64,000 bases of DNA from an uncultured Planctomycetales bacterium (GCA_964520655.1 CAZFNI010000005.1:48852-112851), one strand, 5' to 3'; shown: positions 10,467 through 28,149, numbered from the stretch's first letter. Notes: generated by a model from the letters alone, not told the origin. A program made the numbers and translations.

Positions 10467-10999
10467 GTTCCATTCAGATCTGTCAACGGTATGCGAAAAG
10501 CTTATATTCTTTGGCCCAGGATCAAGGGGTTGTTGAAGAGGTTTATGCCTGTTTACAATCCCTGGGACAGATCATTGAGCAGAGTGCGGACCTGCGGGAT
10601 TTTTTAGGGAATCCGTTGCTTGCGCAGTCGGAACGCCAAAAAGTCATCGCAGCGGTTTTTTCTGGAAAAGTCCCTGCGTTGGTAGAAAAATTTTTATATT
10701 TTATCAATCAAAAGAACCGCTTAAATCGATTAAGAGGTATCATCGACGCATTTGATGCTTTATATCTTCAGGCGCATAATCGGTTGCGTGCTCAGGTTCA
10801 GGTCGCTTTACCGCTAGAGCTGTCTGTGAAAGAGCAGATCTTGGCGCAATTAAGCAGGAAATATGGTAAGGATGTGCTGGCTTCATGGCAGATCCGCCAG
10901 GAGATCTTGGGTGGTTTTCGTATATTGATCGAAGGATATTTGCATGATTATAGTTTTACGGATCAATTGAATAAATACCGTCAGGAAGTTTTAGGTTGA
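10463..10999 (+). CDS. atpH: F0F1 ATP synthase subunit delta (OSCP)
   Basis: Start [18 protein letters not shown] typical of OSCP family. ATGA overlap with atpF. Confidence 0.85.
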
Positions 11000-11036
11000 C
11001 GGTGAAGCTGGTGCATATAACAAAAGAGGGAATACA

Positions 11037-12551
11037 ATGGCGAATCAATTAAATCCAGATGAAGTAAGTTCAATTTTAAAAAGAGAACTGAGCGATTTCA
11101 AAAGTAAGGTTGAGACTTATGAGATCGGTACGGTGCTCAACGTCGGCGACGGTATTGCACGTGTTCATGGTTTAAACAATGTCATGTCGGGTGAGATCGT
11201 TGAGTTTTCCAATGGTGTAAAGGGGATCGCGCTGAATTTGGAGCAGGATAATGTTGGGGTGGCTGTATTCGGAGAGGATTATCTGGTCAAGGAAGGCGAC
11301 GAAGTGCGCCGGACGGGTAAGATCGCCACAGTCCCTGCAGGCGAAGCCTTGTTGGGGCGTATTGTCGACGGATTAGGAACGCCAATTGATGGACAAGGTC
11401 CGGCAAAAGCAACATCCTATCAACAGATCGAGCTTAAAGCGCCGGGGATCATCGATCGCAAGAATGTGCATGAACCCATGCAGACAGGGATCAAGGTTAT
11501 CGATGCTTTGACGCCTATTGGCCGAGGGCAGCGTGAGTTGATCATCGGAGACCGCAAGACTGGTAAAACAACGCTTGCGATCGATGCGATCATTAACCAA
11601 AAAGGAAAAGGTGTTTATTGCTTTTATGTGGCGATAGGGCAAAAGAGGTCTACGGTTGTTCAAATTTATGAAAAGCTCAAGAAGTACGGGGCTATGGAGT
11701 ATACGACCATTATCGCGGCAACCGCTTCTGATCCGGCCCCGATGCAATTTTTGTCCCCTTATGCCGGATGCGCGATGGCGGAATATTTCCGGGATAACGG
11801 CAAACATGCGCTGATTATTTATGATGACCTGACAAAACAAGCTCAGGCTTACCGTCAATTGTCATTATTGTTGCGCCGTCCGCCAGGACGGGAAGCATAT
11901 CCTGGGGATATTTTCTATTTGCATAGCCGTTTGCTGGAAAGAGCGGCAAAGTTAAGTGATGCCAAGGGGGCGGGCAGTTTAACGGCTCTGCCGATCATCG
12001 AAACGCAGGCGGGTGACGTTTCGGCCTATATTCCGACGAACGTGATCTCGATCACGGATGGTCAAATATTTCTGGATACGGATCTCTTTAACGCAGGTCA
12101 GCGTCCAGCCATTAATGCAGGATTGTCTGTGTCCCGCGTCGGAGGTGATGCCCAGGTCAAAGCCATGAAGCAAACAGCGGGAAGTTTGCGACTGGAATTA
12201 GCGCAATACCGTGAATTAGCAGCATTTTCACAGTTTGCCTCGGACTTAGATCCGGCCACGCGCAAGCAGTTAGACCGCGGCAAGCGTTTGATGGAGTTGA
12301 TCAAGCAGGGCATACAAGTACCTTTACCTGTGGTTAAGCAGGTCGCCATCATTTACGCGGGTGTCAATGGCTACTTGGATGATATGCCTGTCGGAAAGGT
12401 CAAGGCATTTGAAGAGTATCTGCATATTCAGCTTGATGCTAAATACCAGTCCTTCGTGGAGATGTTCAACAAGAACTTGAGCATGACCGATGAGATCAAG
12501 GATGCGTTAAAGAAAATATTAACAGATGTTAAAGGGACGTTCGCAGGATGA
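11037..12551 (+). CDS. atpA: F0F1 ATP synthase subunit alpha
   Basis: Walker A GDRKTGKT and ATP-synt_ab signatures. 504 aa. Confidence 0.97.
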
Positions 12552-13414
12552 TCGGTATCAGGGAATATAATAAAAAGATCGGGTCTCTCAAAAATACCCG
12601 TAAGATGACAAAGACCATGAAAATGGTCTCTGCCAGTAAATTCAAAAGGGCCTACAAAGCTCAGTCCAATGCGCAGGAATATGCCCTAAAACTTGGCGAT
12701 CTTGTTGCCCGTTTATCCTCATTCTCTGACGGCCGCCACCCTTTGATGAAAACAAAGAAAGTCAATAACAATGCCCTGATCCTTGTCGTTACCTCTGATA
12801 AAGGCTTGTGCGGAGGGTTTAACAATAATCTTGTCCGTGAGATCAAACGGTGGCATAAAGAAAATCCTTACAAATACACCAAGCTGGATTTTTCATTCTG
12901 CGGCAAAAGAGGGTATATGATGTTCCGCCGGCATGTGACCATAAAAACGTTCTTTGAAGATGTGACGGTAAAACCTTCGTTTAAGGATGCCCTCAGGGTT
13001 TCGGCAGATCTCAAAGAAAGGTTTATCAACGGGGAATATGATGAGGTGTATATCGCTTATAATCGTTTTAATTCCCCATTGTCTCAAACACCTGTTATTG
13101 AAAAGATCCTCCCTTTAAGCACAGCCAATGCTCCCAAAGCAATTAATGCTTCTACCGGTGATTATGAATATGAACCCGCACAGCAGGAACTTTTTGATCT
13201 CTTGGTCCCGAAATTCTTGGATTTTAAGATCTTTTACACGTTCTTGGAAAATGCAGCAGGCGAACATGGGGCTCGTATGACCGCCATGGACAAGGCCTCA
13301 TCGAACACGGCGGATCTGATCGACCGGTATACATTACTGCGTAACAGGGCGCGTCAGGCGGCAATTACGACAGAACTTATTGAGATCATTTCAGGTGCGG
13401 AAGCTCTTAAATAA
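12548..13414 (+). CDS. atpG: F0F1 ATP synthase subunit gamma
   Basis: [22 protein letters not shown]-terminal gamma signature. ATGA overlap with atpA. Confidence 0.9.
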
Positions 13415-15090
<1,676 letters not shown>

Positions 15091-15101: not shown

Positions 15102-15275
15102 ATGCCCGTCTTAACGGAAAAAAAACCGATCACGGTATTTAAGATCAAGAACCGCAGCGGATATGCAGCGATCTGCGACGAGCATTTAACCGAAGGCCAA
15201 AGCGAAGCTGAAGCCATCGACCGCATGAACAAAGCGTTAGACCGCACGTTGCGTAAAGAAACACAAAAACAATGA
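15102..15275 (+). CDS. HicB-like / UPF0150-family small protein (57 aa)
   Basis: Hand translation: MPVLTEKKPITVFKIKNRSGYAAICDEHLTEGQSEAEAIDRMNKALDRTLRKETQKQ. The GYAAICDEHLTEGQSEAEAIDRMNKAL segment resembles the Y-A-CPEL...G.T.EEA..N..EA core of the HicB/UPF0150 fold. Stop overlaps the NUDIX ATG (ATGA). Lies 11 nt after atpC. Confidence 0.5.
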   Translation: MPVLTEKKPITVFKIKNRSGYAAICDEHLTEGQSEAEAIDRMNKALDRTLRKETQKQ

Positions 15276-15832
15276 AAAAGATCGGCTCCAAGATCGTTTA
15301 TGAAGGCAGCTGGTTATCTGTCGAAGAAGCCCAATACACCAATCAAGATGGTAAGCTCTATACATGGGAATCGGTTCACCGCAAGCGTTCCAGCGTTGGA
15401 GTTGTTGTCGTTGCCAAATTAGTTCCTTCGAATCGTTTTATTCTTATCAAACAATTCCGCCCGGCCATTGAAGGGTATATTCTTAGTGTTCCTGCCGGTC
15501 TTGGGTTCGATGATCCTGATCATGGGTTGGTTGAATTAAAGGAAGAAACCGGCTATGTGGGACGCATTGTAGAAACCAGTCCCGTTCTTAAAACAGGTGC
15601 TTCATTGATCAACGACAGTGCCCGTATCGTCTATGTTGAAGTCGATGAACATTTACCAGCTAATCAGCACCCTGTCCAGGAGCTTGAATCAGCTGAAGAT
15701 ATCCAGGTTTGTTTGGTCCAAGACACCGCAGCAAAAGATTATATTTTAGATGAAGCCAAAAAAGGTGTTCATATTGCGGCGAATTTATGGTATCTTTTCG
15801 GTTTGCCTAAATATTTGCCGAAAGAAAAATAA
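15272..15832 (+). CDS. NUDIX hydrolase (ADP-ribose pyrophosphatase-like)
   Basis: Nudix box region PAGLGFDDPDHGLVELKEETGYVG. Confidence 0.75.
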   Translation: MKKIGSKIVYEGSWLSVEEAQYTNQDGKLYTWESVHRKRSSVGVVVVAKLVPSNRFILIKQFRPAIEGYILSVPAGLGFDDPDHGLVELKEETGYVGRIVETSPVLKTGASLINDSARIVYVEVDEHLPANQHPVQELESAEDIQVCLVQDTAAKDYILDEAKKGVHIAANLWYLFGLPKYLPKEK

Positions 15833-16720
15833 ATGCCTTACGATCCTCAGAATCCTCAACAAAGTCACAATGAATCCCAAGAAAAAAAAGGACTTTTCGG
15901 TGTCATCATTCACTCCTTTTTTGTGGTCCCATTCTTACTGGCCATTCTTAGCGTGTTGATGTTCGCTGCGGTAAGGATCCTGACAATGGAAAAACATTCC
16001 GTTTATGATTATTTGAACGACATCAAAAAGGGAGGGATCGATAAGCGCTGGCAAGCTGCATTTGAACTGTCCCGTATTTTAACAAGTCAGAAAGAAGTGC
16101 CTCAAGACCAGCAGTTCATCACAAAGATGGAAGAGGCTTTTAATGCATCATCCAGCGACGATGAACGCGTCAGGCAATATTTGATCCTGGCAATGGGCCG
16201 CAGCCAGCGCGTGGAATTTGTAAATCCGCTTTTAAAAGCGCTTCCACGTGAAAAAGATGAAAATGTATATGCAATTATCACTGCACTTGGTATACTGAAA
16301 TCCAATATTTCGGTCAGTGCTCTTTTAAAATATTTGGATCATCCCAATGCGCGCATCCGCTTGGCATCGGTCATCTCTTTAGGACAGATCGCTGCACCGC
16401 AGACAGCGGGTTCTCTAAAGAAAATGCTTCAAGACAGTGAACCCAACGTAACCTGGGATGCGGCTATAGCTTTGGCTAAAATGGGAGACAAGAGCGGTAA
16501 GGCGATAATTTTAAGTTTGATGGATAGGGAGCACCTGAAAAATTATCCAAACCTCTCACCCGAAAATGTCAGTAAGATCATTAGCGTTGCTATTAATGCG
16601 ACATTTGCCTGGAAGGATGATGACATTAAGCAGTCATTGATCAAATTATTTCAGATCGATCCTAATATGAATGTTCGTGCACTGGCGCATCATAGTTTAG
16701 AAAAATACAATAGTCCTTAA
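15833..16720 (+). CDS. membrane-anchored HEAT-repeat (PBS-lyase-like) protein
   Basis: N-terminal TM helix (FFVVPFLLAILSVLMFAAV) then repeated helical pairs (RWQAAFELSRIL / ERVRQYLILAMG / IRLASVISLGQIA / TWDAAIALAKMGD / NVRALAHHSLEK). ATG directly follows the NUDIX stop. Confidence 0.7.
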   Translation: MPYDPQNPQQSHNESQEKKGLFGVIIHSFFVVPFLLAILSVLMFAAVRILTMEKHSVYDYLNDIKKGGIDKRWQAAFELSRILTSQKEVPQDQQFITKMEEAFNASSSDDERVRQYLILAMGRSQRVEFVNPLLKALPREKDENVYAIITALGILKSNISVSALLKYLDHPNARIRLASVISLGQIAAPQTAGSLKKMLQDSEPNVTWDAAIALAKMGDKSGKAIILSLMDREHLKNYPNLSPENVSKIISVAINATFAWKDDDIKQSLIKLFQIDPNMNVRALAHHSLEKYNSP

Positions 16721-16721
16721 T

Positions 16722-17258
16722 ATGACAGAATCAAAATCTCCAGTTGGAAAATCAGTTGATCAAACAAATGCTACTATGGATCGACGTTCATTTATTAAAT
16801 GGTCTGTAGTCGGCTGGTCGGCTTTTGCGGCAGCCGTTGGCGGATATGGAACTCTGGTGTTGCGTTATTTGTTTCCTAATGTTTTGTTCGAGCCAGTGCA
16901 GACATTTAGAGCGGGTGTGCCGGAAGATTTTGAACCTCGAACTGTATCCGAAAAGTTCAAAGATCAGTATGGTGTTTGGATCGTCCGTGATGAAGAGAAG
17001 ATCTATGCATTATCCACTGTTTGTACGCATTTAGGATGTACCCCCAACTGGTCGCCTGCTGAAAATAAATTCAAATGTCCATGCCACGGCAGTGGGTTTT
17101 ATACCACGGGAGTTAATTTTGAAGGGCCAGCTCCAAGGCCTTTAGAACGTTTTAAGATCGGGCTTTCCGATGAAGGCGATATTGTTGTAGATAAAACCAA
17201 AAAATTCCAACAAGAGAAGGGTGAATGGTCTGATCCAGATTCATTCATTTTAGTTTAG
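16722..17258 (+). CDS. Rieske [2Fe-2S] subunit of a cytochrome b6-type quinol oxidising complex
   Basis: Twin-Arg signal ([22 protein letters not shown]). Rieske boxes CTHLGC and CPCHGS. Confidence 0.9.
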
Positions 17259-17262
17259 ACAT

Positions 17263-18057
17263 ATGAACGACCCCTCAAAGCCTTCATTATTTGATCGATT
17301 CAAACAAACGCAGTTTTTCCGAGCTGTTTTTCGGACTGGGGTTCCAGTAGTCACGCACCGCCAGCGGATGATGGTGGTGCTCAACAATGTGTTCCTGCAT
17401 TTACACCCCGTACGTTTACCAAAACACGCTGTAAAAGTACGTTACACCTGGTGCATGGGGGGATTGTCATTCTTTATTTTCCTGGTCCTAACAGTAACAG
17501 GCATACTGCTGATGTTTTATTATCGTCCAACAGTTGAGTATGCCTATGGAGATGTGACGGATTTAAGCCAACAGGTGCCGCTTGGGATCATGCGGGAGAT
17601 CCACCGCTGGGGCGCACATCTGATGGTGATCACAGTTTGGCTGCACATGTTCCGAGTTTTTATGACTGGTTCTTATAAGCCTCCCAGAGAGTTTAACTGG
17701 GTCATTGGTGTTGTGCTTCTTGTATTGACCATGCTCATGAGTTTTACAGGATATTTGCTTCCATGGGACCAACTGGCCATATGGGCCATTACAGTGGGCT
17801 CGAATATGGCTGGCGCAACCCCCATGGTTGGTATGGGTGGGCCGGGATCGTCACTGCTTTCCATTGGCGATGTGAATTTCGTTACTTCTGTTTCTGATGC
17901 CAGATTTGCCATGCTTGGCGGTCGTTTTGTAGGGGAGAGTGCTTTATTGCGTTTTTATGTGCTGCATTGCATTGGTCTGCCGTTCGTGATCATGATCTTC
18001 ATGATCGTGCATTTTTGGCGCGTCAGAAAAGATGGCGGTATTTCAGGACCGACATAA
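17263..18057 (+). CDS. cytochrome b6-type subunit (N-terminal four-helix, b-heme His ligands)
   Basis: [20 protein letters not shown]...[18 protein letters not shown] cytochrome b signature. Split (b6/subunit IV) architecture. Confidence 0.9.
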
Positions 18058-18060
18058 ACT

Positions 18061-19179
18061 ATGGTTGAATCGATCAAAGAGTTCATCAATATAATTGCCT
18101 CTCCTGCGATATTGTTCAATATCGTGGTCGTGGCGTATCTTATCCTTTTTCCGCCGATCAAATTCTTTGATAATATCCATAAGGCCCTGGGGATAGAAAA
18201 CCTTTGGACAAAGAAGGGTGGAATCGGCATCTTCAGTTTTCTATTTTTTGTTTTTGCTTTTGGTCTATCCGACGCCAATTTCCGCTTGATCGTATTAAAA
18301 CCTGATAATGTGCCGATCGTTGCGTTGATCTTTGTGGTTGTTTTCTTCTTATGGTTTTCCTTAAAACAAGCCAAAGAGAATGATGACGCTATCGCAAAAG
18401 GCGGGAAACCCAAAGAATGGGCTGAATCAAAAGAAAAAGTATTGGTTTTTCCTGACCTTGTTTATATTGAATTGATCGCTTTGATCGCCGCGGCCGCGCT
18501 TTTAGCTGTCTGGTCCATTGGTCTTCCAGCGCCTTTGGAAGATCCTGCCAATCCAACTGTTTCACCGAACCCCTCAAAAGCTCCCTGGTATTTTCTGGGA
18601 CTGCAGGAAATGCTGGTCTATTTTGATCCCTGGCTGGCCGGTGTTGTTTTCCCCACTGTTATCTTAGTCGGGCTGATGTCGATTCCTTTTATTGATAAGA
18701 ACCGCAAAGGCCTGGGGTACTACACCTATAAAGACCGCAAAATGGCGATCAATATCTTTATGTTCTTGTGGCTGGTGCTCTGGATCTTTTTGATCATCGT
18801 GGGTACGTTCCTGCGCGGTCCAAACTGGAATTTCTTCGGACCTTTTGAGTTCTGGGACCACTACAAATTGATCGCTTTAAATAATATCAACCTTTCGGAA
18901 TATGTGTACATGATCTGGTTGAACCGGGGGATGCCCAGCAATATTTTCTTAAGGGAACTCCCTGGATTTGTAGCACTCGTACTTTATTTCGGCCTGTTAC
19001 CACTGATATTCGCCAAAACAATATTCAAGGATCTTTATCAGAAAGTCGGTGTGGTGCGCTACAGCATTTTTGCTGTATTATTCTTGTTAGCGCTGCTGCT
19101 GCCGATCAAAATGTATTTACGCTGGCTGTTTAATATCAAATATCTGATCGCTATACCAGAATTCTTTTTTAACGTTTAA
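18061..19179 (+). CDS. subunit IV-like (cytochrome b C-terminal) protein, extended to 372 aa with extra TM helices
   Basis: PEWY-type motif region (PNPSKAPWYFLGLQEMLVYFDPW). Additional N- and C-terminal hydrophobic segments. Confidence 0.8.
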   Translation: MVESIKEFINIIASPAILFNIVVVAYLILFPPIKFFDNIHKALGIENLWTKKGGIGIFSFLFFVFAFGLSDANFRLIVLKPDNVPIVALIFVVVFFLWFSLKQAKENDDAIAKGGKPKEWAESKEKVLVFPDLVYIELIALIAAAALLAVWSIGLPAPLEDPANPTVSPNPSKAPWYFLGLQEMLVYFDPWLAGVVFPTVILVGLMSIPFIDKNRKGLGYYTYKDRKMAINIFMFLWLVLWIFLIIVGTFLRGPNWNFFGPFEFWDHYKLIALNNINLSEYVYMIWLNRGMPSNIFLRELPGFVALVLYFGLLPLIFAKTIFKDLYQKVGVVRYSIFAVLFLLALLLPIKMYLRWLFNIKYLIAIPEFFFNV

Positions 19180-19181
19180 TT

Positions 19182-22142
19182 ATGCCTGAGCCATTACCTC
19201 CAGAATCTCATTATAATCCAAAGCTTCTCGACAAGATCTTTGCGGCTGTCGCTGTTATTCTATTGATCTCGATCATCGGGCTATTTGCTAAAGATTATTC
19301 CAGGCAATGGAAGAATTATCAGAGAGAATTCAGGGCTTTAGAGGTTGAAAAGTCCCGTGTTAAACTTGATGAACAGGAGAATCTATTAAAGGGAAACGAG
19401 GAATATCAGGATATATTGAAAAAGCTGGAAGAAGTGACGAAAACCCTTTCAGCCAAAGCACCCCAAAGTAATGCCATAGCCACTAGATTGTCTGCCGCCC
19501 AAGCTGTGGAACGTCTGCATACCCAGCAGTATCAGTTCTCAAAAGCAAAGTATGATGCATTAAAATACCAATTTGAGAGCGCAGCTGATAAGAAAGCTTC
19601 TAATGCCCAGCAATTCAAGATCAATTTAGAGAATTTATCGACGCGCTTACAGAAACTAAGCGTATTAGTAGAGGTCGACAAGCATACAACAAAGGGAATT
19701 GAGCAAGAATTAAACGATGCACAGAAGGCTTATAAATCGATCGATAAGCAGCGACTGAATTTGGCTAAGAAAAAAGAGATCTTGGAAAAAAAACTGAAAC
19801 GCATTGATATCGCCGAAATGTCTGCGATGAATCAATTGGCTGAAATGGTCAGAGATCTGCCCATCATTGACTTGGCCAATCCGAATTATAAGATCCGCCA
19901 GATCGTTCTGAAGGATATTCCTGAAGATGTGAATTTCATGAAAGTTCCTCGTGTGGATCGCTGTACGACCTGCCACTTGGGTATTGATAATCCTGATTTT
20001 AAGGAAGCGGCCCAACCATACCGTACTCACCCAAATTTGGAATTGTACATGGATAAGAATTCTCCACACCCGTTGGATCAATTTGCCTGTACAACCTGTC
20101 ATGGGGGGCGCGGGAGAGCGACAGATTTCACGGCAGCGGCCCATACGCCTCGTAATGAAGAACAAGCCAGCGAATGGAAGAAAAAATATGGCTGGCATGA
20201 GCTGGAGCACTGGGAACACCCTATTTTACCGCTGCAATATACCCAAGCGGGTTGTTTTAAGTGCCACCAGGATCAGGGCAGTATCAAAGGAGCGGAAAAA
20301 TTAAATCTAGGGTTGACATTGATCGAACGTGCGGGATGCTACGGCTGCCATAATGTCAATAAGTACGCTTCCTGGCCGAAATCAGGACCGAATCTTGAAT
20401 ATGTCTCCAGTAAATTGACAAAAGATTGGACTTACCATTGGATCGAAAATCCCAAAGCGATCCGCCACAATGCCTGGATGCCGTCATATTTTAATCAAAC
20501 TAATAATAGTGACCCCGTATCTATAGAACGCAGCAAGCAGGAGATCAATGCCCTGGTCGAATTCCTCTTTGGCAACAGTAAGAAATTTTCTGTGGATGCA
20601 TTATCACAGAAGGGAGATTCTAAAAATGGCAAAGAATTGGTTGCGTCGCTTGGGTGCTTAGGGTGTCACCAGATCACTAAGGACAAGCCTTCAGAACCTC
20701 GAACACCAGACTCACTCCATAGGGAATTTGGCCCTAATCTGATAGGGTTAGGCAGCAAAACCACTCAGGCCTGGTTATATCAGTGGTTAAAAGATCCTAA
20801 GCGTTATCACGAAACGTCGCGTATGCCGTCGCTGCGTTTATCCGATCAGGAAGCCGCGGATATTGCGGCATTTTTGATCCAAGATAAGGATGCCAATTCG
20901 GTAAAACCTCGTCCCGCTCTCAATGAGACGGTTCTTAATGAGATCGTCATGGATTTCTTGAAAAAATCAGAATCAGTGGCGGATGCTCAGGCAAAACTCG
21001 CAACGATGGATAAAACAGCGAAACAAAAATTTGCCGGTCAGCGCTTGGTCCGTGAATATGGTTGTTTCGCCTGCCATAAGATCCCTGGATTTGAGAATGA
21101 AAAACCTATTGGTGTTGATCTCTCAGAAGAAGGTTCGAAAAGTATTGAGCGTTTGGATTTTGGTTTTGTGAAGATCGAACACAGTAAACATGCCTGGTTT
21201 AAACAAAAATTGTTAGATCCGCGTATCTTTGATCATGGTCGCGTTTTATCACCCTTGGAACGCAACAGAATGCCTAATTTCAACCTAACTCAGGATGAGG
21301 CAGATGCCTTAACAACACTGATCTTAGGGCTCGTGAAAGATAAACCAAATCAAAACAAAATGCCCAATACCTCGGTAAAAGCAGCGTTCGTGACTCAAGG
21401 TCAGAGGACGATCCGTCAGCTTAATTGCCAGGGCTGTCATATGATCGAAGGTCAAGGTGGAGGTGTGCAGTCAACTGTTGAGGACTGGCTGGTGCATTAT
21501 CAAAATAAAGATGTTAATGAAGCGAAAGCGATCTCCCGTAGTTTTTCACCGCCAAACTTGATCGGTGAAGGGGCTAAGATACAGGCTCAATGGATGTTTG
21601 AATTTTTCCATGAACCTATTGCCATCCGCCCATGGTTGAAGATCCGCATGCCAAGCTACAATTTTCATCAGGGTCAAGAGAATACATTGATCAAATATTT
21701 CAATTATTACGATGACCAGGAGTTCCCCTTTACTGAAATCTATCATGCGGATCTTTCTAAAGAAGACTATGCATCAGCCGAGAAACTTTTCTCCAAAGAA
21801 GTGTTTAATTGCGCACAATGCCACATCATCGGTAGTAAACATCCAGATGGAGCACCGGAAAACTGGGCTCCAGACTTGTCGCTGGCTTCAGAAAGGTTAA
21901 AGCCTGATTGGATCATTAAATGGATCACAAACCCGCCAGCGCTGCTTCCAGGCACAAAAATGCCTGTATTCTATGACCCGAAAGCTTTTGAAACCTCTGG
22001 TCCTCCTGATATATTTGGGGGGGATTCCAACCGTCAAATCCGTGCCTTGAGGGACTATGTCTTGTCCATTACAGCGGATCCCCAACCAACTAAATCACAT
22101 GATCCAGTTCCAGAAGCGTCCAAAGATGCTCCTGTAAAGTAA
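19182..22142 (+). CDS. membrane-anchored octaheme cytochrome c (N-terminal TM + ~200-aa coiled coil + 8 CXXCH)
   Basis: Eight CXXCH motifs: CTTCH x2, CFKCH, CYGCH, CLGCH, CFACH, CQGCH, CAQCH. The last five sit in tandem class-I cytochrome c-like units with GPNL...W...MP signatures. Residues ~40-230 are a K/E/Q-rich heptad region. Confidence 0.85.
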   Translation: MPEPLPPESHYNPKLLDKIFAAVAVILLISIIGLFAKDYSRQWKNYQREFRALEVEKSRVKLDEQENLLKGNEEYQDILKKLEEVTKTLSAKAPQSNAIATRLSAAQAVERLHTQQYQFSKAKYDALKYQFESAADKKASNAQQFKINLENLSTRLQKLSVLVEVDKHTTKGIEQELNDAQKAYKSIDKQRLNLAKKKEILEKKLKRIDIAEMSAMNQLAEMVRDLPIIDLANPNYKIRQIVLKDIPEDVNFMKVPRVDRCTTCHLGIDNPDFKEAAQPYRTHPNLELYMDKNSPHPLDQFACTTCHGGRGRATDFTAAAHTPRNEEQASEWKKKYGWHELEHWEHPILPLQYTQAGCFKCHQDQGSIKGAEKLNLGLTLIERAGCYGCHNVNKYASWPKSGPNLEYVSSKLTKDWTYHWIENPKAIRHNAWMPSYFNQTNNSDPVSIERSKQEINALVEFLFGNSKKFSVDALSQKGDSKNGKELVASLGCLGCHQITKDKPSEPRTPDSLHREFGPNLIGLGSKTTQAWLYQWLKDPKRYHETSRMPSLRLSDQEAADIAAFLIQDKDANSVKPRPALNETVLNEIVMDFLKKSESVADAQAKLATMDKTAKQKFAGQRLVREYGCFACHKIPGFENEKPIGVDLSEEGSKSIERLDFGFVKIEHSKHAWFKQKLLDPRIFDHGRVLSPLERNRMPNFNLTQDEADALTTLILGLVKDKPNQNKMPNTSVKAAFVTQGQRTIRQLNCQGCHMIEGQGGGVQSTVEDWLVHYQNKDVNEAKAISRSFSPPNLIGEGAKIQAQWMFEFFHEPIAIRPWLKIRMPSYNFHQGQENTLIKYFNYYDDQEFPFTEIYHADLSKEDYASAEKLFSKEVFNCAQCHIIGSKHPDGAPENWAPDLSLASERLKPDWIIKWITNPPALLPGTKMPVFYDPKAFETSGPPDIFGGDSNRQIRALRDYVLSITADPQPTKSHDPVPEASKDAPVK

Positions 22143-22144
22143 CA

Positions 22145-22918
22145 ATGCTTGTCAAAATCCTTATTTTGTCGTTTTTGATATTTGGAGTAACCTATCCGTT
22201 ATTCTTTTGGCTTAGTCATAAAAACCCCATTAAACACAATTTTCACCGATTTCACTTAGCTTGTCCTATAGTAGTCGCGGGTCTAGCGATCCTGGGTCTT
22301 TGGTTATTCCCGTTTGATGGCCTTTTAAGAGGGGCAGCCCTGTTATGGTTACTGGCGGCGTTGATCATAACTGCCTTATTTTGGAATAAGCAAGGCGTTC
22401 ATCTATTAACGATAACTTTTTTGAGTATTGGGGGGATCATTGTGTATGGCGCTATATTCGCCCATCTTGTTGCTGATGATCTTTGGTATGTGTTGGTGTC
22501 GATATTATCCGGACTTATTGTGAGTGCGGCCTTTTATGCCATGAATCTAGGCCATTTTTATTTGAATGTCCTGGGCCTGAAAGTCGACCATTTAAAGTCT
22601 GCTGTTGATCTTCTGGGACGCTTGATCGGCCTGCGATTCGTCTATGAGATCATGGTCCTGCCATTGATTCAGTTGAACTTCATTGGGGAGAAAATATCCG
22701 CGTTCAAATTTATGCTCACCCTGGACGGGTTTATGATATGGGTGGGTATTTTCTTTGGTGTTATTTTTCCATTAGGAGCTCTTTATTTCGCCAGGGGAAC
22801 ACTGCAGTTAAGAAATACTCAAGCGACAACGGGAATTTTATATGTAGTCCTATCCGGCATTCTTTTAGGCGATCTAATTTTGAAATATTCATTGATCAAG
22901 TACCATATTCCATTGTGA
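22145..22918 (+). CDS. polytopic membrane protein (7-8 TM), unknown function, co-transcribed with the bc-type complex
   Basis: Hydrophobic throughout. ATG 3 nt after the octaheme gene stop. No recognisable motif. Confidence 0.55.
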   Translation: MLVKILILSFLIFGVTYPLFFWLSHKNPIKHNFHRFHLACPIVVAGLAILGLWLFPFDGLLRGAALLWLLAALIITALFWNKQGVHLLTITFLSIGGIIVYGAIFAHLVADDLWYVLVSILSGLIVSAAFYAMNLGHFYLNVLGLKVDHLKSAVDLLGRLIGLRFVYEIMVLPLIQLNFIGEKISAFKFMLTLDGFMIWVGIFFGVIFPLGALYFARGTLQLRNTQATTGILYVVLSGILLGDLILKYSLIKYHIPL

Positions 22919-23331
22919 TCCCGACGATATCCCGTTTCTGTCCATCGTGTCAAAAATATGCTCGTCTTGCAATAAAGGACGGTACAGAACTTCAATGTCC
23001 CCATTGTCAGAATGGTTGGGGACAAGTTAAAAGTGTTAGTGAGGTATTCCAGAATTGTCCTGTTTGTTCATGCCGACAGTTTTATGTCGATAAGGATTTT
23101 AACCAGGTCATCGGTTTTATCATCATGGGGGTAGGGGTTCTGTTGGTACCAGCGACCTACGGACTTAGTCTTCCTGTTTTTGCCTTCATTGATTGGCTGC
23201 TGTATAAGAAAGTACCCCGTCTGATCGCTTGCTACCGTTGCGGTAGTGAATACCGTCATTTCAAGATACCTGCAGCATTAAAACCATTCCAGCATCACAT
23301 CGGTCTTAAATACGACAAATATAGGAAATAA
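22915..23331 (+). CDS. double zinc-ribbon membrane protein (4 x CxxC flanking one TM helix)
   Basis: CPSC-x15-CPHC and CPVC...(TM: VIGFIIMGVGVLLVPATYGL)...CYRC. The only in-frame start after the upstream stop is GTG 22915, which overlaps the TGA of the preceding gene (GTGA). The ORF-track ATG at 22738 would overlap 181 nt. Confidence 0.5.
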   Translation: MIPTISRFCPSCQKYARLAIKDGTELQCPHCQNGWGQVKSVSEVFQNCPVCSCRQFYVDKDFNQVIGFIIMGVGVLLVPATYGLSLPVFAFIDWLLYKKVPRLIACYRCGSEYRHFKIPAALKPFQHHIGLKYDKYRK

Positions 23332-23335: not shown

Positions 23336-24232
23336 TCAGGACCTCTTACGATCATTGCGGTTGATCATATCGTAGAAGAGCTGCGTGGCTTTTGAGAACA
23401 CTTTCTGGTTCTTATAGATGATAGATAGCGGGCGTTTAAAATTCATGTCTTTGACAGGGAGGATATCAAAGGACTTGCTTTTTATCTCTTGAGTAACGGT
23501 GGAGATAGGCAGTATCGAGCAGCCCACGCCCACATCGATCGCGTTCTTGATAGTTTCAATATTACTGTATACTTTGATGATATTGGGGCGGATCGATTTA
23601 TCGTGAAGGTATTGCTCGATCGCTTTTCCTGTTTGTGTCGTTGTATCAAAGCCAATAAAATCAACTCCATTCAAGTCTTCCAGGCGAAGGTTCCTTTTTT
23701 TTAGTAGAGGGTGGAGCTTAGACTGAACCAGCACCAGATCTTCCTCAGAAAAGATCTTTACCGTACATCCCGGCATGGGCTTTGGGTAAGCGACAAGCCC
23801 GAAGTCGGCTGTACCTTTTTTTATAGCCTCGTAAATATCATCCTGATGCATATATTCCAAGTTCACATTAATGTCAGGGTATTTCTTTAAGAGATGTTGA
23901 AGGATAGGCTTTAGCTGGTAAAGCCCCATGGTATAGATGGAAACAATGTGTATTGTTCCGGCATAATGCTTATTGTTCTCAGTGATCTTCGAGTGGGCAT
24001 TAGCGTATACTTCCAGCATTTGGCGCGCATAGGACATCAATATCTGCCCATCAGGCGTCAGAACGATCTTTTTTAAGGAACGTTCGAAAAGGATGCAGTG
24101 GAAATGCTTCTCAAGGATCTGGATATGCTGAGTCACGGCTGGCTGAGTGATGTTGTTCTTTTCTGCCGCAAGACGGAATGACCCGGTTTCAGCCACAGAG
24201 ATAAAAGTTTTAAAGAAGAATAAATTGATCAT
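23336..24232 (-). CDS. LysR-family transcriptional regulator
   Basis: N-terminal HTH FKTFISVAETGSFRLAAEKNNITQPAVTQHIQILE. LysR substrate-binding domain. Divergent from the nikM-hox operon. Confidence 0.9.
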   Translation of the reverse strand: MINLFFFKTFISVAETGSFRLAAEKNNITQPAVTQHIQILEKHFHCILFERSLKKIVLTPDGQILMSYARQMLEVYANAHSKITENNKHYAGTIHIVSIYTMGLYQLKPILQHLLKKYPDINVNLEYMHQDDIYEAIKKGTADFGLVAYPKPMPGCTVKIFSEEDLVLVQSKLHPLLKKRNLRLEDLNGVDFIGFDTTTQTGKAIEQYLHDKSIRPNIIKVYSNIETIKNAIDVGVGCSILPISTVTQEIKSKSFDILPVKDMNFKRPLSIIYKNQKVFSKATQLFYDMINRNDRKRS

Positions 24233-24358
24233 ATAGATCTCCCATAAGAAAAACTTATTACAAGTATAACATAAACCAACATGCGGTAAAGGTCAAAATG
24301 GTGTAATGTTGATGCATTATTAGTTCACGCGTTAAGGATCATAATTAAGGAGCAAAAG

Positions 24359-25252
24359 ATGCATATCCCACAACACATGCTTCAAGGCAATATTTGTCCA
24401 GTGACACTGGCAGTCGGCGTGGCCAGTACGGCTGCGGCTTTGTATTTTACGACCAAATCCCAGGATGAAGTTTCGCCAGCGCGTTTCGCCAGCGTTACGG
24501 CCTTGATCTTTGGGCTGCAGATGATCAATTTCCCTGTTGCAAACGGCACCAGCGGACATCTTATTGGAGGCGTCCTGGCTGCGGCACTGTTAGGTGTCCC
24601 CAGAGCCATTCTTTCCATAGTCCTTGTGTTATTGGCTCAGGTATTGTTTTTCGGGGATGGCGGACTGGACGCATTTGGAGCCAATATTTTAAATATGGCT
24701 ATCATAGGTGCTGGAGTTGGTGGAATTGGCATGCTGATGCTAAAACGCTTGCGGATAAGTCAGCCAGTTTTGATCTTCATGGCTTCCGCATCCTCAGTCG
24801 TGCTGGCAAGTCTTGCATGCACTGTTGAGGTCACATCCTCAAATCAGATCGGGTTTACGACCATGGCTCAAGCGATGATCCCATTGCATGCGCTGATAGG
24901 GATAGGAGAAGGAGTCCTGAGTGTTGCTGTATTTTATTTGTGTAGCGCTACACTAAAAGAACAAAGCAATATTCTTCCTCTTTCAATGAGAGCTTTACTT
25001 TTAATGAGTGCAGTAGCATTTGTAACTCCTTTTGCCAGTTCATTTCCTGATGGTCTAGAGCACACGATAGATCTGACGCAAATTATTTCCACAGGGAATA
25101 CATCCTTCCTGGCACTGTTAAATGATTATCAGACCCCAGGGGTCACTAATCCTTTTTGCTCAACCATAATAGCCGCAATGCTGGGCATGGGGATCGTCTA
25201 CATTTTTTCAATGGCAGTCATCCGGGTGAGGTACGCATATGATCATGGCTAA
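24359..25252 (+). CDS. ECF-type Ni/Co uptake substrate-capture protein NikM/CbiM with C-terminal PDGLE domain
   Basis: Conserved N-terminal MHIP (metal-binding N-terminus of the CbiM/NikM family). ~6 TM. C-terminal region carries the literal PDGLE motif (SSFPDGLEHT). Good RBS AAGGAG. Stop overlaps the hoxE start. Confidence 0.7.
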   Translation: MHIPQHMLQGNICPVTLAVGVASTAAALYFTTKSQDEVSPARFASVTALIFGLQMINFPVANGTSGHLIGGVLAAALLGVPRAILSIVLVLLAQVLFFGDGGLDAFGANILNMAIIGAGVGGIGMLMLKRLRISQPVLIFMASASSVVLASLACTVEVTSSNQIGFTTMAQAMIPLHALIGIGEGVLSVAVFYLCSATLKEQSNILPLSMRALLLMSAVAFVTPFASSFPDGLEHTIDLTQIISTGNTSFLALLNDYQTPGVTNPFCSTIIAAMLGMGIVYIFSMAVIRVRYAYDHG

Positions 25253-25760
25253 AAAAAAGACATATCTGGATATAGAGCTTCCCAAAAGCACTGATCCGCG
25301 ACTTAAACAGATCACCTTAAAGATGAAGAAGGAGAATTATCGTCCTGAATCATTGATCGAAGTGCTGCACACCGCTCAGAATGCTTACGGTTATTTACCG
25401 ATGAGCGTGCTGGCCTATATAACCCGGGAATTGAAATTACCGCCATCCAGGGTTTTCGGTACAGTTACGTTCTATCACTTTTTCTCTTTAAAATCCAAAG
25501 GTGATCATACTTGCCTGGTCTGTACAGGAACAGCCTGTTATGTGAAAGGCGCTCAGGCTGTACTGGATGAAGTAGAAAAAAATTTTGGTCTCAAATCAGG
25601 GGAAGTATCCAAAGACAATAAATTGGGCGTTCAGTCAGCACGCTGTATCGGGGCCTGCGGGCTCGCACCAGCTGTGGTTATTGACGAAGATGTCATTTCA
25701 AGAGCAAAACCTGAGGATGTCACCAGGATCCTCAAAGAAAAGGTGGGAGTGGCGAAATGA
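25239..25760 (+). CDS. hoxE: NAD-reducing [NiFe] hydrogenase diaphorase subunit HoxE (NuoE-like 2Fe-2S)
   Basis: CLVCTGTACYVKG...CIGACGLAP thioredoxin-like 2Fe-2S motifs. Start may be the ATG at 25245. Confidence 0.85.
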   Translation: MIMAKKKTYLDIELPKSTDPRLKQITLKMKKENYRPESLIEVLHTAQNAYGYLPMSVLAYITRELKLPPSRVFGTVTFYHFFSLKSKGDHTCLVCTGTACYVKGAQAVLDEVEKNFGLKSGEVSKDNKLGVQSARCIGACGLAPAVVIDEDVISRAKPEDVTRILKEKVGVAK

Positions 25761-27421
25761 ATCATCAGGAATTGACGACAATCGAAGAGAAATTCAAAGA
25801 AAAAGATCGCTGCTTGAAAGGTAAGGTGAGGGTTTGCTGCGGTACCGGCTGTATGGCTACCGGCAGCGAGAAGATCCTAAAAGAATTCCAAAATACCGCC
25901 AAAGAAAAAGGCGTTGAGAACGATTATGATATCAACATGTCAGGATGTATGGGGGCCTGCACCCAGGGGCCACTTGTCCGCATCGCTCCTGAAAATACGA
26001 TCTACGAACAGGTTAAAACGGATGATGTCAAAAAGATTTTTGATGAACACATTATAAAGAAGGAACCCATCAAGTCGATGTTCCTGTTCCATGAGACCAG
26101 GACAAAGTCATATGTAAATACATTCGAAGATCCGTTCTTTAAGAAGCAAGCCCACATTGTTTTAGGAGGTCGCGGGGAGATCAATCCGGAATCGATCGAA
26201 GATTATATTGGCTGCAATGACGGTTATAAAGCCCTTGAGAAAGCATTGCTGAGGTCAAGCCCGGAAGAAGTCATTTCTGAGGTTAAACACAGCCGTCTAC
26301 GAGGTCGCGGCGGTGCCGGTTTCCCAACAGGTCTTAAATGGGAAACGGTCTATAAGTATGTTTCCAATATCAAATATGTCATCTGTAACGGTGATGAAGG
26401 CGATCCAGGAGCCTTTATGGACCGCAGTGTGCTGGAGAGTAACCCTCATCGAGTTTTAGAGGGGATGATTATTGCCGGCTATGCGATCGGAGCGCAAAAA
26501 GGGTTTGCCTATATTCGCGGCGAATATGCATTGGCGGTCAAACGCTTTGAGTTGGCGATACGGCAAGCTAAAAAACTCGGCTTGTTGGGAGCTAATATTT
26601 TTGGAACTGATTTCTCTTTTGATATTGAAGTGCGCATTGGGGCGGGTGCTTTCGTTTGCGGTGAAGAAACAGCGTTGATCGCCTCCATTGAAGGAAAACG
26701 GGGTACACCAAGACCAAGACCTCCATTTCCCGCTGAGTCTGGTTTATGGGGAAAGCCTACGTTGATCAATAATGTGGAGTCACTGGCGGCTATCGCACCG
26801 ATCGTACTAAAGGGCGGTGAATGGTTCAGCGCTTTGGGTACACCCAAAAGCGCAGGTACTAAAGTCTTTGCACTCACAGGCAAAGTCATGAATTCCGGTC
26901 TTATCGAAGTCCCCATGGGGACGACACTGCGGGAGATCATTTTTGATATAGGGGGCGGCATCCCTGACGGACATAAGTTCAAAGCGGCCCAGACTGGAGG
27001 ACCATCAGGCGGCTGTATTCCAGAACAGCATCTCGATGTTAAAGTGGATTATGAATCCCTTGTTGAGGTAGGTTCGATCATGGGATCCGGTGGATTGATC
27101 GTCATGGATGATACCTGCGACATGGTTGACGTTGCCCGCTTCTTTATGGAATTCTGCATGGATGAATCTTGCGGTAAATGTGTCCCTTGTCGTGTTGGCA
27201 CCAAAATGATGTTCGATATCCTGACAAAGATCTGCGCTGGCAAAGGTAATGCGGATGATCTAAAAAAACTAGAGGAACTGGCATTCATGGTCAAGGAAAC
27301 AAGTTTATGCGGTCTGGGGATGTCTGCGCCTAACCCGCTGCTAAGCACATTGAGATATTTCCGGGGCGAATATGAAGCCTATGTGAATAAAGCCCAAAAA
27401 GCAATGGAAGCGGCACACTAA
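25757..27421 (+). CDS. hoxF: NAD-reducing hydrogenase diaphorase subunit HoxF (NuoF-like; FMN/NAD(H), 4Fe-4S, N-terminal 2Fe-2S domain)
   Basis: GRGGAGFPTGLKWE FMN-site motif. CGKCVPCRVG 4Fe-4S motif. N-terminal CCGTGC...C.GAC. Confidence 0.95.
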   Translation: MNHQELTTIEEKFKEKDRCLKGKVRVCCGTGCMATGSEKILKEFQNTAKEKGVENDYDINMSGCMGACTQGPLVRIAPENTIYEQVKTDDVKKIFDEHIIKKEPIKSMFLFHETRTKSYVNTFEDPFFKKQAHIVLGGRGEINPESIEDYIGCNDGYKALEKALLRSSPEEVISEVKHSRLRGRGGAGFPTGLKWETVYKYVSNIKYVICNGDEGDPGAFMDRSVLESNPHRVLEGMIIAGYAIGAQKGFAYIRGEYALAVKRFELAIRQAKKLGLLGANIFGTDFSFDIEVRIGAGAFVCGEETALIASIEGKRGTPRPRPPFPAESGLWGKPTLINNVESLAAIAPIVLKGGEWFSALGTPKSAGTKVFALTGKVMNSGLIEVPMGTTLREIIFDIGGGIPDGHKFKAAQTGGPSGGCIPEQHLDVKVDYESLVEVGSIMGSGGLIVMDDTCDMVDVARFFMEFCMDESCGKCVPCRVGTKMMFDILTKICAGKGNADDLKKLEELAFMVKETSLCGLGMSAPNPLLSTLRYFRGEYEAYVNKAQKAMEAAH

Positions 27422-27441
27422 AATTGGGATGAGGAGAAGTC

Positions 27442-28149
27442 ATGGCAAAAATCACACTGACAATAGATGATAAACAAATTGAAACAGAGCAGGGCAAGTC
27501 CCTCCTGGAGGTTTGCCGGGAAAATGGTGTCAATATCCCGACACTTTGCCATCTTGACGGGCTGACAGACGTTGGTGCCTGCCGGTTGTGCCTTGTTGAG
27601 ATCGAAGGAGTATCTAAGCTTTTGCCGACTTGCACAACTAAAGCGCAGGCCAACCAGGTCGTTAAGACGCAAACGGACAAGCTTAAAAAATACCGCCGGA
27701 TGATCGTGGAGATGTTCTTCGCGGAAGGGAACCACATCTGTTCTATCTGTATCGCAAACAATAACTGTGAACTCCAGGCGCTTGGATACCAGGTTGGAAT
27801 GGAGCATGTGCGGTTCCCATATATTTTTAAGAAGGCACGTGTGGATGCGTCGCATCCTTGGTTTGTGATGGACTATAACCGCTGCGTGCTCTGCACGCGC
27901 TGCGTTCGTGTTTGCGGTGAGGTTGAAGGAGCTCATAACTGGAGCGTAATGAACCGCGGACACCAGGCCAGGATCATTTCAGATTTTGACACTCCTTGGG
28001 GCGAATCCAGCACCTGTACCGATTGCAGCAAATGCGTTGATGCCTGTCCCACTGGCGCTCTTTGGCCCAAAAGGGGTATTCAGGGTCAGGTCAGGAAAAA
28101 TCCTCAAAAGATATCGCAACTTGTTGAAAAAAGGAAAATGAACCTATGA
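27442..28149 (+). CDS. hoxU: NAD-reducing hydrogenase subunit HoxU (NuoG-like 2Fe-2S/4Fe-4S)
   Basis: CRLCLVEIEG, CSICIANNNCELQ and CTDCSKCVDACPTGA cluster motifs. Confidence 0.9.
   Translation: MAKITLTIDDKQIETEQGKSLLEVCRENGVNIPTLCHLDGLTDVGACRLCLVEIEGVSKLLPTCTTKAQANQVVKTQTDKLKKYRRMIVEMFFAEGNHICSICIANNNCELQALGYQVGMEHVRFPYIFKKARVDASHPWFVMDYNRCVLCTRCVRVCGEVEGAHNWSVMNRGHQARIISDFDTPWGESSTCTDCSKCVDACPTGALWPKRGIQGQVRKNPQKISQLVEKRKMNL

Follow-up and report, generated by a model that had tools for sequence, protein, structure and literature searches.

A cytochrome b6-type quinol-oxidising gene cluster with an octaheme cytochrome c, probably one half of a respiratory supercluster in Candidatus Omnitrophota

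The cytochrome b6f complex of cyanobacteria and chloroplasts (PetC, PetB, PetD and PetA) combines a Rieske protein of the twin-arginine translocation (Tat) type with a split cytochrome b, in which a four-helix cytochrome b6 with H-x13-H and H-x14-H ligand pairs and a CxGG motif is encoded apart from subunit IV. The CxGG motif has been tied to covalent heme cn (Dibrova et al. 2017). Complexes that join b6 and subunit IV to a multiheme cytochrome c are already known as a general type from comparative genomics and from work on anammox bacteria, and none has been purified or solved beyond the anammox models. Here we analysed a cluster of this type in a 64-kb stretch of DNA (hereafter, the window; CAZFNI010000005.1:48852-112851 of assembly GCA_964520655.1, titled as an uncultured Planctomycetales bacterium). 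At positions 16722-23331, the genes for a Rieske protein, cytochrome b6, an extended subunit IV and an octaheme cytochrome c are followed by those for an eight-helix membrane protein of 257 amino acids (hereafter, TM257) and a double zinc-ribbon protein (hereafter, ZnR). The module is a real but uncharacterised variant of complex III, in which a giant membrane-anchored eight-heme cytochrome replaces cytochrome c1 or f. At least six bacterial phyla, all of them little studied, have this variant. Taken as a whole, the region is probably best explained as the quinol-oxidising half of a conserved respiratory supercluster of Candidatus Omnitrophota, with TM257 and ZnR as an accessory module.

The redox subunits and their closest described relatives

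The original prediction had placed six co-translated genes at these positions. All six are real, tightly packed open reading frames (ORFs) on the plus strand, with profile matches down to an E-value of 1e-43, and they are not a chance arrangement, as full-length homologues of each occur in the same order in dozens of other genomes. They belong to a run of eight plus-strand genes at 15272-23331 with gaps of -4 to +4 nucleotides throughout (Table 1). For the last ORF, the end at 23331 on the plus strand held, and the 197-residue reading from ATG 22738, which overlaps the TM257 gene by 180 nucleotides, did not: the conserved start is GTG 22915, where the homologues begin and where a GTGA start/stop overlap with TM257 is formed. 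Promoter and terminator scans gave signals at or near chance level and were not used.

The Rieske protein has both cluster-binding boxes (CTHLGC at residue 101 and CPCHGS at residue 119) and a twin-arginine (RR) at residue 21, in a Tat signal or anchor; its match to the PetC model of NCBIfam (E=1.5e-20) is under the cut-off. Cytochrome b6 is a four-helix protein encoded apart from subunit IV, as in the b6f-type split. Its heme ligand pairs, His114/His128 (x13) and His235/His250 (x14 on helix D, the b6 spacing), are kept in the 27 homologues aligned for b6 and subunit IV, as is CMGG at residues 64-67, which is the CxGG motif of heme cn (ci), and the protein carries a predicted site for covalent attachment of that heme. 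Across phyla its identity is 72-94%; among solved structures, the b6 proteins of cyanobacteria and chloroplasts come closest (E=8e-44), and the cytochrome b6 model PRK03735 scored 184 bits. Family matches and motifs thus bear out the proposed Rieske/cytochrome b complex with split b6 and subunit IV, which has the Rieske boxes and the two His pairs of the bc1/b6f superfamily and lacks the c1 or f of that group in the strict sense.

A strongly conserved motif, VFLHLHPVR, stands in the N-terminal part of b6 upstream of CMGG (residues 40-56; another region lies at ~190-225). In AlphaFold3 models of the anammox complexes, an extra b heme is ligated by an N-terminal His of each monomer (PMC12954380), and by analogy H46 or H48 of this motif could be the equivalent ligand.

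Subunit IV is extended to 372 amino acids, as had been noted. Its likeness to PetD (E=2e-7) and ExtQ is confined to residues ~132-262, and its hydropathy profile has eight hydrophobic segments, with three extra predicted transmembrane (TM) helices at the N-terminus and two at the C-terminus. These extensions hold conserved motifs of their own. The Qo motif reads KAPWYF and not PEWY, so that P-W-Y is kept and the glutamate is absent, and it is identical in Poribacteria and Vicinamibacteria.

The octaheme cytochrome has exactly eight CXXCH motifs, at residues 261, 303, 358, 386, 492, 628, 749 and 877, all invariant in 36 aligned homologues (49-79% identity), likewise H283, H296 and H321. Five Met-Pro pairs (433, 548, 697, 823 and 927), one after each of hemes 4-8, are invariant in the same alignment. 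We read this pattern as a c3/c7-like module with three bis-His hemes, placed ahead of five class-I domains with His/Met ligation. The reading agrees with the domain matches in Pfam and NCBIfam, which are weak and of the MtrC/c3/c7 type for hemes 1-3 and show FixO/cbb3-type and SoxX-type similarity for the class-I domains. More than 900 homologues were found, and the best 120 of them are full-length (962-1039 amino acids). No relative was found among PDB sequences except a weak match of the C-terminal class-I domain, and a Foldseek search of the model against PDB returned coiled coils only, with no significant E-values.

The AlphaFold2 model of the cytochrome (mean predicted local distance difference test score, pLDDT, 73.9) leaves the apo multiheme stretch unmodelled and has a TM helix at residues 13-39 and two long helices at 42-136 and 142-208 (pLDDT ~84-94). 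The hairpin of residues 42-208 (window 19305-19805) would measure ~14 nm if extended. It weakly resembles periplasmic adaptor hairpins, with a fold match to EmrA and a faint Pfam match to HH_AprE on the homologue P0457. The hairpin may either lie along the complex, as modelled for Kustd1485 of the anammox bacterium Kuenenia, or project into the periplasm.

Searches for other cytochromes c, c1 and f covered the 64-kb window in all six frames. Only three further CXXCH strings were found, and no cytochrome contains any of these; neither the ORFs of the cluster nor the rest of the window gave a family match to cytochrome f or c1, and the octaheme gene is the sole c-type cytochrome gene in the 64 kb. 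This agrees with the claim that the complex lacks c1 and f. The octaheme gene also lies directly 3' of subunit IV in every relative examined, which upholds its proposed place in the complex. With no c1, f or other cytochrome c in the window and this constant position, the octaheme cytochrome is therefore the substitute for c1 or f. From their context, the System II cytochrome c maturation genes at 2019-5017 would provide the means of attaching its eight c hemes.

Compared with b6f, the cluster has in common the split four-helix b6 and subunit IV, both ligand spacings, the CxGG motif and the Tat-type Rieske protein. It differs in that cytochrome f is replaced by the 986-residue octaheme protein, subunit IV has about eight helices instead of three, and PEWY has become KAPWYF. 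In addition, b6 exceeds its cyanobacterial counterpart by ~20 residues within the aligned region, and it has the N-terminal VFLHLHPVR; a gene for a HEAT-repeat protein stands in front, and no PetG, PetL, PetM or PetN genes were seen here.

The likeness to multiheme bc variants that had been suggested holds, and the nearest curated or described relatives are of the Geobacter ExtP/ExtQ type and the anammox b6f-like complexes. Like the cluster, the Kuenenia complexes (Kustd1480-1485 and Kuste4569-4574) combine a b6-like protein that has heme cn with an enlarged subunit IV, and a cytochrome with six or eight hemes replaces f. The multiheme subunits were compared by description: the long alpha-helices of Kustd1485, modelled as wrapping the complex (PMC12954380), parallel the hairpin of the octaheme cytochrome here. 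In contrast, the anammox complexes have an NAD(P) oxidoreductase subunit with iron-sulfur (FeS) clusters and flavin adenine dinucleotide (FAD), and none is encoded here between 15272 and 23331; one of them has an octaheme protein of the hydroxylamine oxidoreductase type, and their subunit IV has five helices, compared with eight here. The HoxEFU genes of the window belong to a hydrogenase block (see below) that is absent from the relative L001.

The Geobacter proteins ExtP and ExtQ (NF040969 and NF040970) are the nearest curated families for b6 (271 bits, cut-off 290) and for subunit IV (58.3 bits, E=9e-16, cut-off 150), but both scores are under the equivalog cut-offs, so that neither protein is assigned as an equivalog. 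The c-type partner is a different one, and the genomic context here is an oxidase operon.

The actinobacterial bcc-aa3 system (QcrCAB and CtaCDEF) has no soluble cytochrome c step, and its bc complex and oxidase are functionally coupled (PMC4505504). The cluster is alike in logic, with a membrane-bound multiheme cytochrome c bridging the Rieske protein to aa3, rather than in a physical supercomplex shown here. The actinobacterial system differs in its fused long cytochrome b without heme cn and its diheme QcrC, against a split b6 with heme cn and eight hemes here, where a cupredoxin gene is also interposed.

Gene order in relatives and the linked oxidase operon

The loci of relatives came from a TM257 profile scan of one genome per GTDB species, which gave 432 loci, 80 of which were kept; these (L001 onward) were scored by tblastn with the window proteins, including those of its oxidase. 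The strict order HEAT-Rieske-b6-subunit IV-octaheme-TM257-ZnR was found in every Omnitrophota-type locus with enough flank, down to a TM257 identity of 35%, and b6 and octaheme genes were present in 21 of the 21 such loci with at least 6 kb of upstream sequence. Poribacteria have the same order from HEAT to ZnR. With a Vicinamibacteria homologue as the query, full-length octaheme relatives were found in Acidobacteria, Polarisedimenticolia, Luteitalea, Hydrogenedentes and Marinimicrobia, and they occur also in Poribacteria.

The HEAT protein, which the original prediction did not mention, has one N-terminal TM helix (~residues 29-47), and its gene stops 1 nucleotide before the Rieske gene. It stands immediately 5' of the Rieske gene in Omnitrophota-type loci whose flank reaches that far, in Poribacteria (L031), in Vicinamibacteria (L071) and in two further genomes of 4.6-5.4 Mb (L081 and L086); of all partners of the bc genes, it is the one most consistently kept with them. 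Because the HEAT gene precedes Rieske also in L071, L081 and L086, it forms a conserved unit with the four redox subunits. Its NCBIfam matches of the NblB/CpcE type are far under the cut-off. The HEAT_2/HEAT_PBS group includes bilin lyases, and by analogy it is an attractive idea that the HEAT protein handles heme cn. The attachment system for heme cn outside cyanobacteria and plastids has been called 'a mystery' (Dibrova et al. 2017), and the searchable literature held nothing specific on bc or respiratory complexes of Omnitrophota or on HEAT/heme-cn factors.

Also unmentioned was the link to a cupredoxin-oxidase cluster at 40335-47724. Its oxidase genes (41063-47724) encode an A-family heme-copper oxidase of the aa3 type. 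The ligands of the cupredoxin, HN(I/V)H ... C-D-V-H-P-W-M, are in register with the four of amicyanin (His...C-x2-H-x2-M), as in a type-1 copper site, and the same motif is found in L013; the protein has no Pfam copper-binding match, and the amicyanin E-value is modest. In Omnitrophota-type loci, the cupredoxin gene follows ZnR in 17 of 24, and CoxA does so in 12 of the 16 with enough flank (tblastn). The order is cupredoxin-CoxA-CoxC-(small)-CoxB-CtaA-CtaB-Sco, after a gap of up to 0.5 kb or of ~3.6-4 kb; the cupredoxin lies within ~0.5 kb of ZnR in L001, L007, L008, L011, L022, L026, L028, L031 and L032. Oxidase genes likewise follow ZnR in both Poribacteria loci and in Hydrogenedentes (L082). 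The cupredoxin precedes CoxA in Omnitrophota, Poribacteria, Hydrogenedentes, Spirochaetia and Vicinamibacteria, and the linkage to a cupredoxin-aa3 oxidase operon recurs in four phyla.

The larger gap, as seen in L013 (11333-14615), holds genes for a sigma factor of the extracytoplasmic function (ECF) type and a 902-residue anti-sigma-like von Willebrand-A protein, between ZnR and the oxidase operon. Equivalent gaps occur in L015, L016, L019, L021, L029, L033 and L042, which are one sub-lineage of Omnitrophota. The sigma/anti-sigma pair may serve to regulate the oxidase genes specifically.

In the window, a 17-kb block (23336-40246) parts ZnR from the cupredoxin gene. It contains LysR (minus strand), CbiM, an NAD-linked [NiFe] hydrogenase (HoxEFUYH), HoxW, HypA/F/C/E, a 1187-residue pyruvate:ferredoxin oxidoreductase (PFOR) and a gene like that of dihydroorotate dehydrogenase. 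In L001, the closest relative by TM257 (65-93% identical across the cluster), bc, TM257-ZnR and oxidase genes are contiguous, with 92 nucleotides from ZnR to the cupredoxin and no block. L002, the closest by octaheme, shares the LysR-CbiM-Hox start of the block after ZnR, over its first 6.5 kb. The block appears to be an anaerobic/hydrogen module that was inserted, in a lineage-specific event, into a supercluster for aerobic respiration. Since L001 is contiguous and the window is interrupted, the original prediction therefore saw a supercluster cut in two.

The exact octaheme cytochrome is also present on a 147-kb NCBI contig, and its named relatives are Candidatus Omnitrophota. The complete Omnitrophota-type order was likewise seen in other assemblies titled 'uncultured Planctomycetales' (L001, L007-L009, L011, L014, L018, L022, L023, L027 and L029; TM257 identity 37-65%), and its octaheme-TM257-ZnR part on a contig titled Lysobacterales (L017), and contigs titled Kuenenia stuttgartiensis (L060, L076 and L079) carry the TM257-ZnR pair of the Planctomycetota type. 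The record titles of these Planctomycetales-, Lysobacterales- and Kuenenia-labelled contigs are probably imprecise.

The upstream part of the window (101-15090) is also bioenergetic in content; its genes were assigned by eye, except for ResB and CcsA.

Table 1 Features of the 64-kb window discussed in the text
Feature	Position	Strand	Match or remark
HemE-like	101-889		assigned by eye
Protoporphyrinogen oxidase-like	880-2067		assigned by eye
System II cytochrome c maturation, ResB-like	2019-3152	+	PF05140 E=2e-18
System II cytochrome c maturation, CcsA-like	3083-5017	+	PF01578 E=5e-21
HemA-like	7604-8665		assigned by eye
Complete F-type ATP synthase operon	8880-15090		assigned by eye
NUDIX hydrolase	15272-15832	+	abuts HEAT gene as tightly as the rest of the cluster
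HEAT-repeat membrane protein, 295 aa	15833-16720	+	PF13646 HEAT_2 E=2.4e-21; HEAT_PBS E=6e-6
Rieske [2Fe-2S] protein, 178 aa	16722-17258	+	PF00355 E=1.9e-11
Cytochrome b6, 264 aa	17263-18057	+	PF00033 E=1.1e-43
Extended subunit IV, 372 aa	18061-19179	+	PF00032 on residues 162-249 only
Octaheme cytochrome c, 986 aa	19182-22142	+	8 CXXCH
TM257, 8-TM protein, 257 aa	22145-22918	+	no Pfam/NCBIfam match
ZnR, double zinc-ribbon protein, 138 aa	22915-23331	+	four CxxC pairs
Secreted cupredoxin, amicyanin-like domain and CarboxypepD_reg beta-sandwich	40335-41045	+	residues 92-173 vs amicyanin E=0.0017; PF13620 C-terminal
CoxA	41063-42796	+	PF00115 E=1.9e-132
CoxC	42812-43414	+	PF00510
Small membrane protein	43418-43783	+	within oxidase cluster
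CoxB, without heme-c domain	44101-44865	+	PF00116
CtaA	44869-45873	+	PF02628
CtaB	45831-46733	+	PF01040
Sco (Sco1/SenC) fused to DUF420 (CtaM-like) membrane domain	46654-47724	+	PF02630+PF04238

The TM257-ZnR pair

TM257 and ZnR proved, as had been claimed, to be conserved and to fall outside every annotated family. For TM257, searches of the window protein against Pfam and NCBIfam, of 20 diverse members against Pfam at E<=10, and of the family profile against all PDB sequences returned nothing. Clustered at 50% identity, the family comprises 1,084 representatives, almost all of them 240-290 amino acids long. In an alignment of 76 sequences from at least five phyla, the invariant residues are G136, H137, Y139 and L140 (in LGH[W/F]YLN), G205, and T225, Q226, T229, G230 and Y233 (in TQ[S/A]ATGILYV), and R164 and W80 are kept in >90%. 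The model (pLDDT 93.4) has eight helices in two four-helix bundles, and the motif residues are at the ends of TM5, TM7 and TM8, on the cytoplasmic side by the positive-inside rule (loop charges). A bis-His heme site made from H37, H137 and H149 was ruled out, as H37 and H149 are not kept outside Omnitrophota and H137 is the sole His conserved across phyla.

The four CxxC pairs of ZnR (CPSC at 9, CPHC at 28, CPVC at 48 and CYRC at 106) make two Cys4 sites, with the two knuckles per predicted metal site of a zinc ribbon. Across 61 homologues drawn from at least five phyla, all eight Cys are conserved with few or no exceptions, as are K60, G67, D93 and Y107; a basic K-D-F stretch, a hydrophobic hairpin of ~35 residues that contains an invariant Asp, and a Tyr next to the final CxxC are kept too. 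Because the hairpin interrupts the second Cys4 site, the two soluble parts of the protein must share one side of the membrane, which we infer to be the cytoplasmic side. Pfam matches are to generic Zn_ribbon models only, with a weak rubredoxin-like match of the rubrerythrin type in 3 of 19 sequences, and sequence cannot separate the Cys4 sites from rubredoxin knuckles.

ZnR was detected next to TM257 in 68 of 81 loci; when the Acidobacteriota/other group is set apart, the count is 51 of 52. The two are paired with a start/stop overlap in at least five phyla. Among 150 representatives screened for fusions, P0306 (477 amino acids) and P0330 (428 amino acids), both on high-GC contigs, hold the TM257 and ZnR parts in one ORF. 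These are natural fusions or frameshifted gene calls, and are consistent with the two proteins acting together. As a clue to function, domain fusions were set aside, since these two were the only ones and were uninformative.

The original prediction took the two proteins as an accessory pair of the bc complex and proposed a search for their co-occurrence with bc genes. Across the sampled loci, the pair was not specific to bc. It is absent after the octaheme gene in L081, L086, L085 (Polarisedimenticolia), L084 (Luteitalea) and L083 (Marinimicrobia), where unrelated genes or, in L083, the cupredoxin directly follow. Conversely, Spirochaetia have TM257-ZnR-cupredoxin-CoxA-CoxC-CoxB in 4 of 5 loci and bc in 0 of 5 (~10 kb upstream), and in Planctomycetota the pair adjoins neither bc nor cox (0 of 7 for both) and is followed in all loci examined by a protein of ~1000 amino acids with FAD-oxidase, 4Fe-4S and CCG parts and no membrane anchor. 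In most Vicinamibacterales the pair, following an Fe/Mn superoxide dismutase (SOD) gene, is next to neither bc nor cox, and in many of them no bc lies within 10 kb; it is close to bc in two Vicinamibacteria (L058 and L071). TM257-ZnR is thus a separate, widespread pair that travels with the neighbouring oxidase at least as much as with bc. In Hydrogenedentes (L082, JACQVH010000179.1, 5513-9426), helix-turn-helix/peptidase M78, Beta_protein and phage P4 cII-like genes are inserted between octaheme and TM257, leaving TM257-ZnR joined to cupredoxin-COX1.

We therefore favour a separable two-protein module over a core bc subunit, in which ZnR would be anchored by its hairpin with the Cys4 domains towards the conserved cytoplasmic surface of TM257, and the pair would have an accessory or biogenesis function for this oxidase/bc lineage, exerted at the cytoplasmic face. 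The pair would have stayed with the bc operon here when the hydrogenase/PFOR block entered between it and cox. Whether it is tied to the oxidase side, or to a supercomplex, rather than to bc itself is close to an even chance, and a function unrelated to respiration is an alternative. A copper- or heme-handling role may be considered, though no homology points to it: the features noted for it are M133-x3-H137 of TM257, the four CxxC pairs of ZnR and a location 5' of genes for a copper protein and a copper oxidase. Also counted in its favour is that the eight genes scanned in the oxidase cluster included neither Cox11/CtaG nor Surf1.

By fold, TM257 resembles NrfD, ActC, PsrC and CydA, a likeness at the level of the fold only, with no sequence similarity to the NrfD-type proteins (PsrC, and ActC/ActF of alternative complex III) or to CydA/CydB of cytochrome bd. 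It could accordingly be imagined as an autonomous quinone-reactive anchor facing the cytoplasm, a mirror image of an NrfD/PsrC-type module, in which rubredoxin-like Fe(Cys)4 centres of ZnR would carry electrons between dehydrogenases in the cytoplasm and the quinone pool supplying bc. We hold this to be unlikely, if the best placed of the alternatives. Clusters of His, Tyr, Thr and Gln at the membrane interface are typical of quinone sites, and TM257 has an invariant one at the membrane-cytoplasm interface, within a heme-free two-bundle fold; the anchorless FAD/4Fe-4S/CCG protein beside the pair in Planctomycetota and the rubredoxin-like ambiguity of the Cys4 sites fit as well. However, no dehydrogenase partner is adjacent in the Omnitrophota, Spirochaetia or Acidobacteriota loci, the ZnR matches are to structural zinc ribbons, and TM257 has no sequence relationship to NrfD. 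It is also 130-200 residues shorter than most of its NrfD/CydA-type matches (PsrC, at 250 amino acids, is similar in size), lacks an adjacent periplasmic FeS partner gene, and has its conserved residues on the cytoplasmic side, next to a cytoplasmic zinc-ribbon hairpin protein, whereas those of NrfD-type proteins and CydA are periplasmic. Membership of the CydA family is further contradicted by the single universal His and by the length of 257 residues, against 377-449 in the matched CydA chains, which leaves no room for a Q-loop.

It appears quite improbable that the bc complex contains TM257 and ZnR as dedicated subunits in stoichiometric amounts, in place of the small Pet subunits or with a new function. 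The TM257 gene is translationally coupled to the octaheme gene here (2-nucleotide gap), the pair is directly downstream of bc in all 21 Omnitrophota-type loci with sufficient flank and in Poribacteria, and it is near bc in the two Vicinamibacteria named above. Yet the five loci of other lineages have bc clusters of the same type without the pair, Spirochaetia have the pair with cox and without bc, Planctomycetota have it with neither, and the mobile insert in Hydrogenedentes parts it from bc and not from cox.

The proposed electron path and its meaning

The accessory-module reading of the pair belongs to a wider proposal for the whole supercluster, the first part of which follows the established Q-cycle of bc1 and b6f complexes. 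Quinol would be oxidised at a Qo site formed by b6 and subunit IV; one electron would pass from the Rieske protein to the octaheme wire, and the other would go back to quinone on the N side by way of bL, bH and cn. Judging from synteny, the octaheme cytochrome would then deliver electrons to the aa3-type oxidase, in which CoxB lacks a heme-c domain, directly or through the amicyanin-like cupredoxin, which is likely the carrier to CuA. The full path would run from quinol through Rieske, octaheme, (cupredoxin) and CuA to heme a/a3-CuB, an obligate chain from bc to oxidase with a logic like that of actinobacterial bcc-aa3. The HEAT protein, again on the strength of synteny, would be the fifth conserved component, whether as a subunit or as a factor dedicated to assembly.

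Several points weigh against this proposal. The step from octaheme to oxidase would rest on synteny and on there being no alternative within the 64 kb. An anaerobic acceptor is kept as an option because hemes 1-3 are read as bis-His and the nearest curated families come from Geobacter Ext clusters; hydrogenase and PFOR genes are also present in the window, and many Omnitrophota are regarded as anaerobic. TM257-ZnR adjoins bc as often as cox, and the two links come apart only in Spirochaetia and in the bc clusters without the pair. Its place beside an FAD/FeS/CCG oxidoreductase in Planctomycetota, or beside Fe/Mn SOD in Vicinamibacterales, fits a more general redox role, and the near-absolute invariance of the polar residues of TM257 suggests a catalytic or ligand site more than a passive role in assembly.

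A complex not wired to oxygen at all, with the octaheme cytochrome as a periplasmic wire to an anaerobic or extracellular acceptor (metal, selenite or nitrogen oxide) and the cox adjacency secondary, as has been proposed for the Geobacter Ext/Cbc and anammox Rieske/cytochrome b complexes, would suit the best curated matches (ExtP, ExtQ and ExtS), the MtrC/c3/c7-type matches of hemes 1-3, the adaptor-like hairpin and the hydrogenase and PFOR of the organism, but is the least probable of the alternatives, as five of the eight hemes are of the class-I His/Met type, FixO/cbb3- and SoxX-like and typical of high-potential carriers, the cupredoxin-aa3 linkage recurs in four phyla, and no outer-membrane conduit or reductase gene lies within the cluster.

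The searchable literature gave no description of the 3+5 octaheme cytochrome of this lineage, its HEAT partner, its coupling to cupredoxin-aa3 or the TM257-ZnR family. The genes define one coherent large lineage with a HEAT protein, a Rieske protein, a b6 with heme cn, an eight-helix subunit IV and a 3+5 octaheme cytochrome, which spans Omnitrophota, Poribacteria, Acidobacteriota, Hydrogenedentes and Marinimicrobia and is genetically wired to a cupredoxin-aa3 operon. Three conserved, uncharacterised elements are singled out: the HEAT protein, the TM257-ZnR pair and the cupredoxin fusion. A tentative extension, which we think less likely than the supercluster proposal itself, is that at least three conserved components have no described counterpart, with TM257-ZnR, known from at least six phyla, as a new, widespread device at the cytoplasmic face that would handle quinone or protons, or insert cofactors, for a bc-cupredoxin-aa3 supercomplex, and the HEAT protein as an attachment factor for heme cn of b6. 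The system would gain in interest if such a role were shown for TM257-ZnR or the HEAT protein, and these conserved elements bear on how heme cn is attached in non-photosynthetic bacteria. A Luteitalea metagenome-assembled genome carries the cytochrome, so that cultured relatives in Acidobacteriota offer an experimental entry point. More broadly, the supercluster suggests that phyla commonly viewed as anaerobic "dark matter" respire aerobically or microaerobically.

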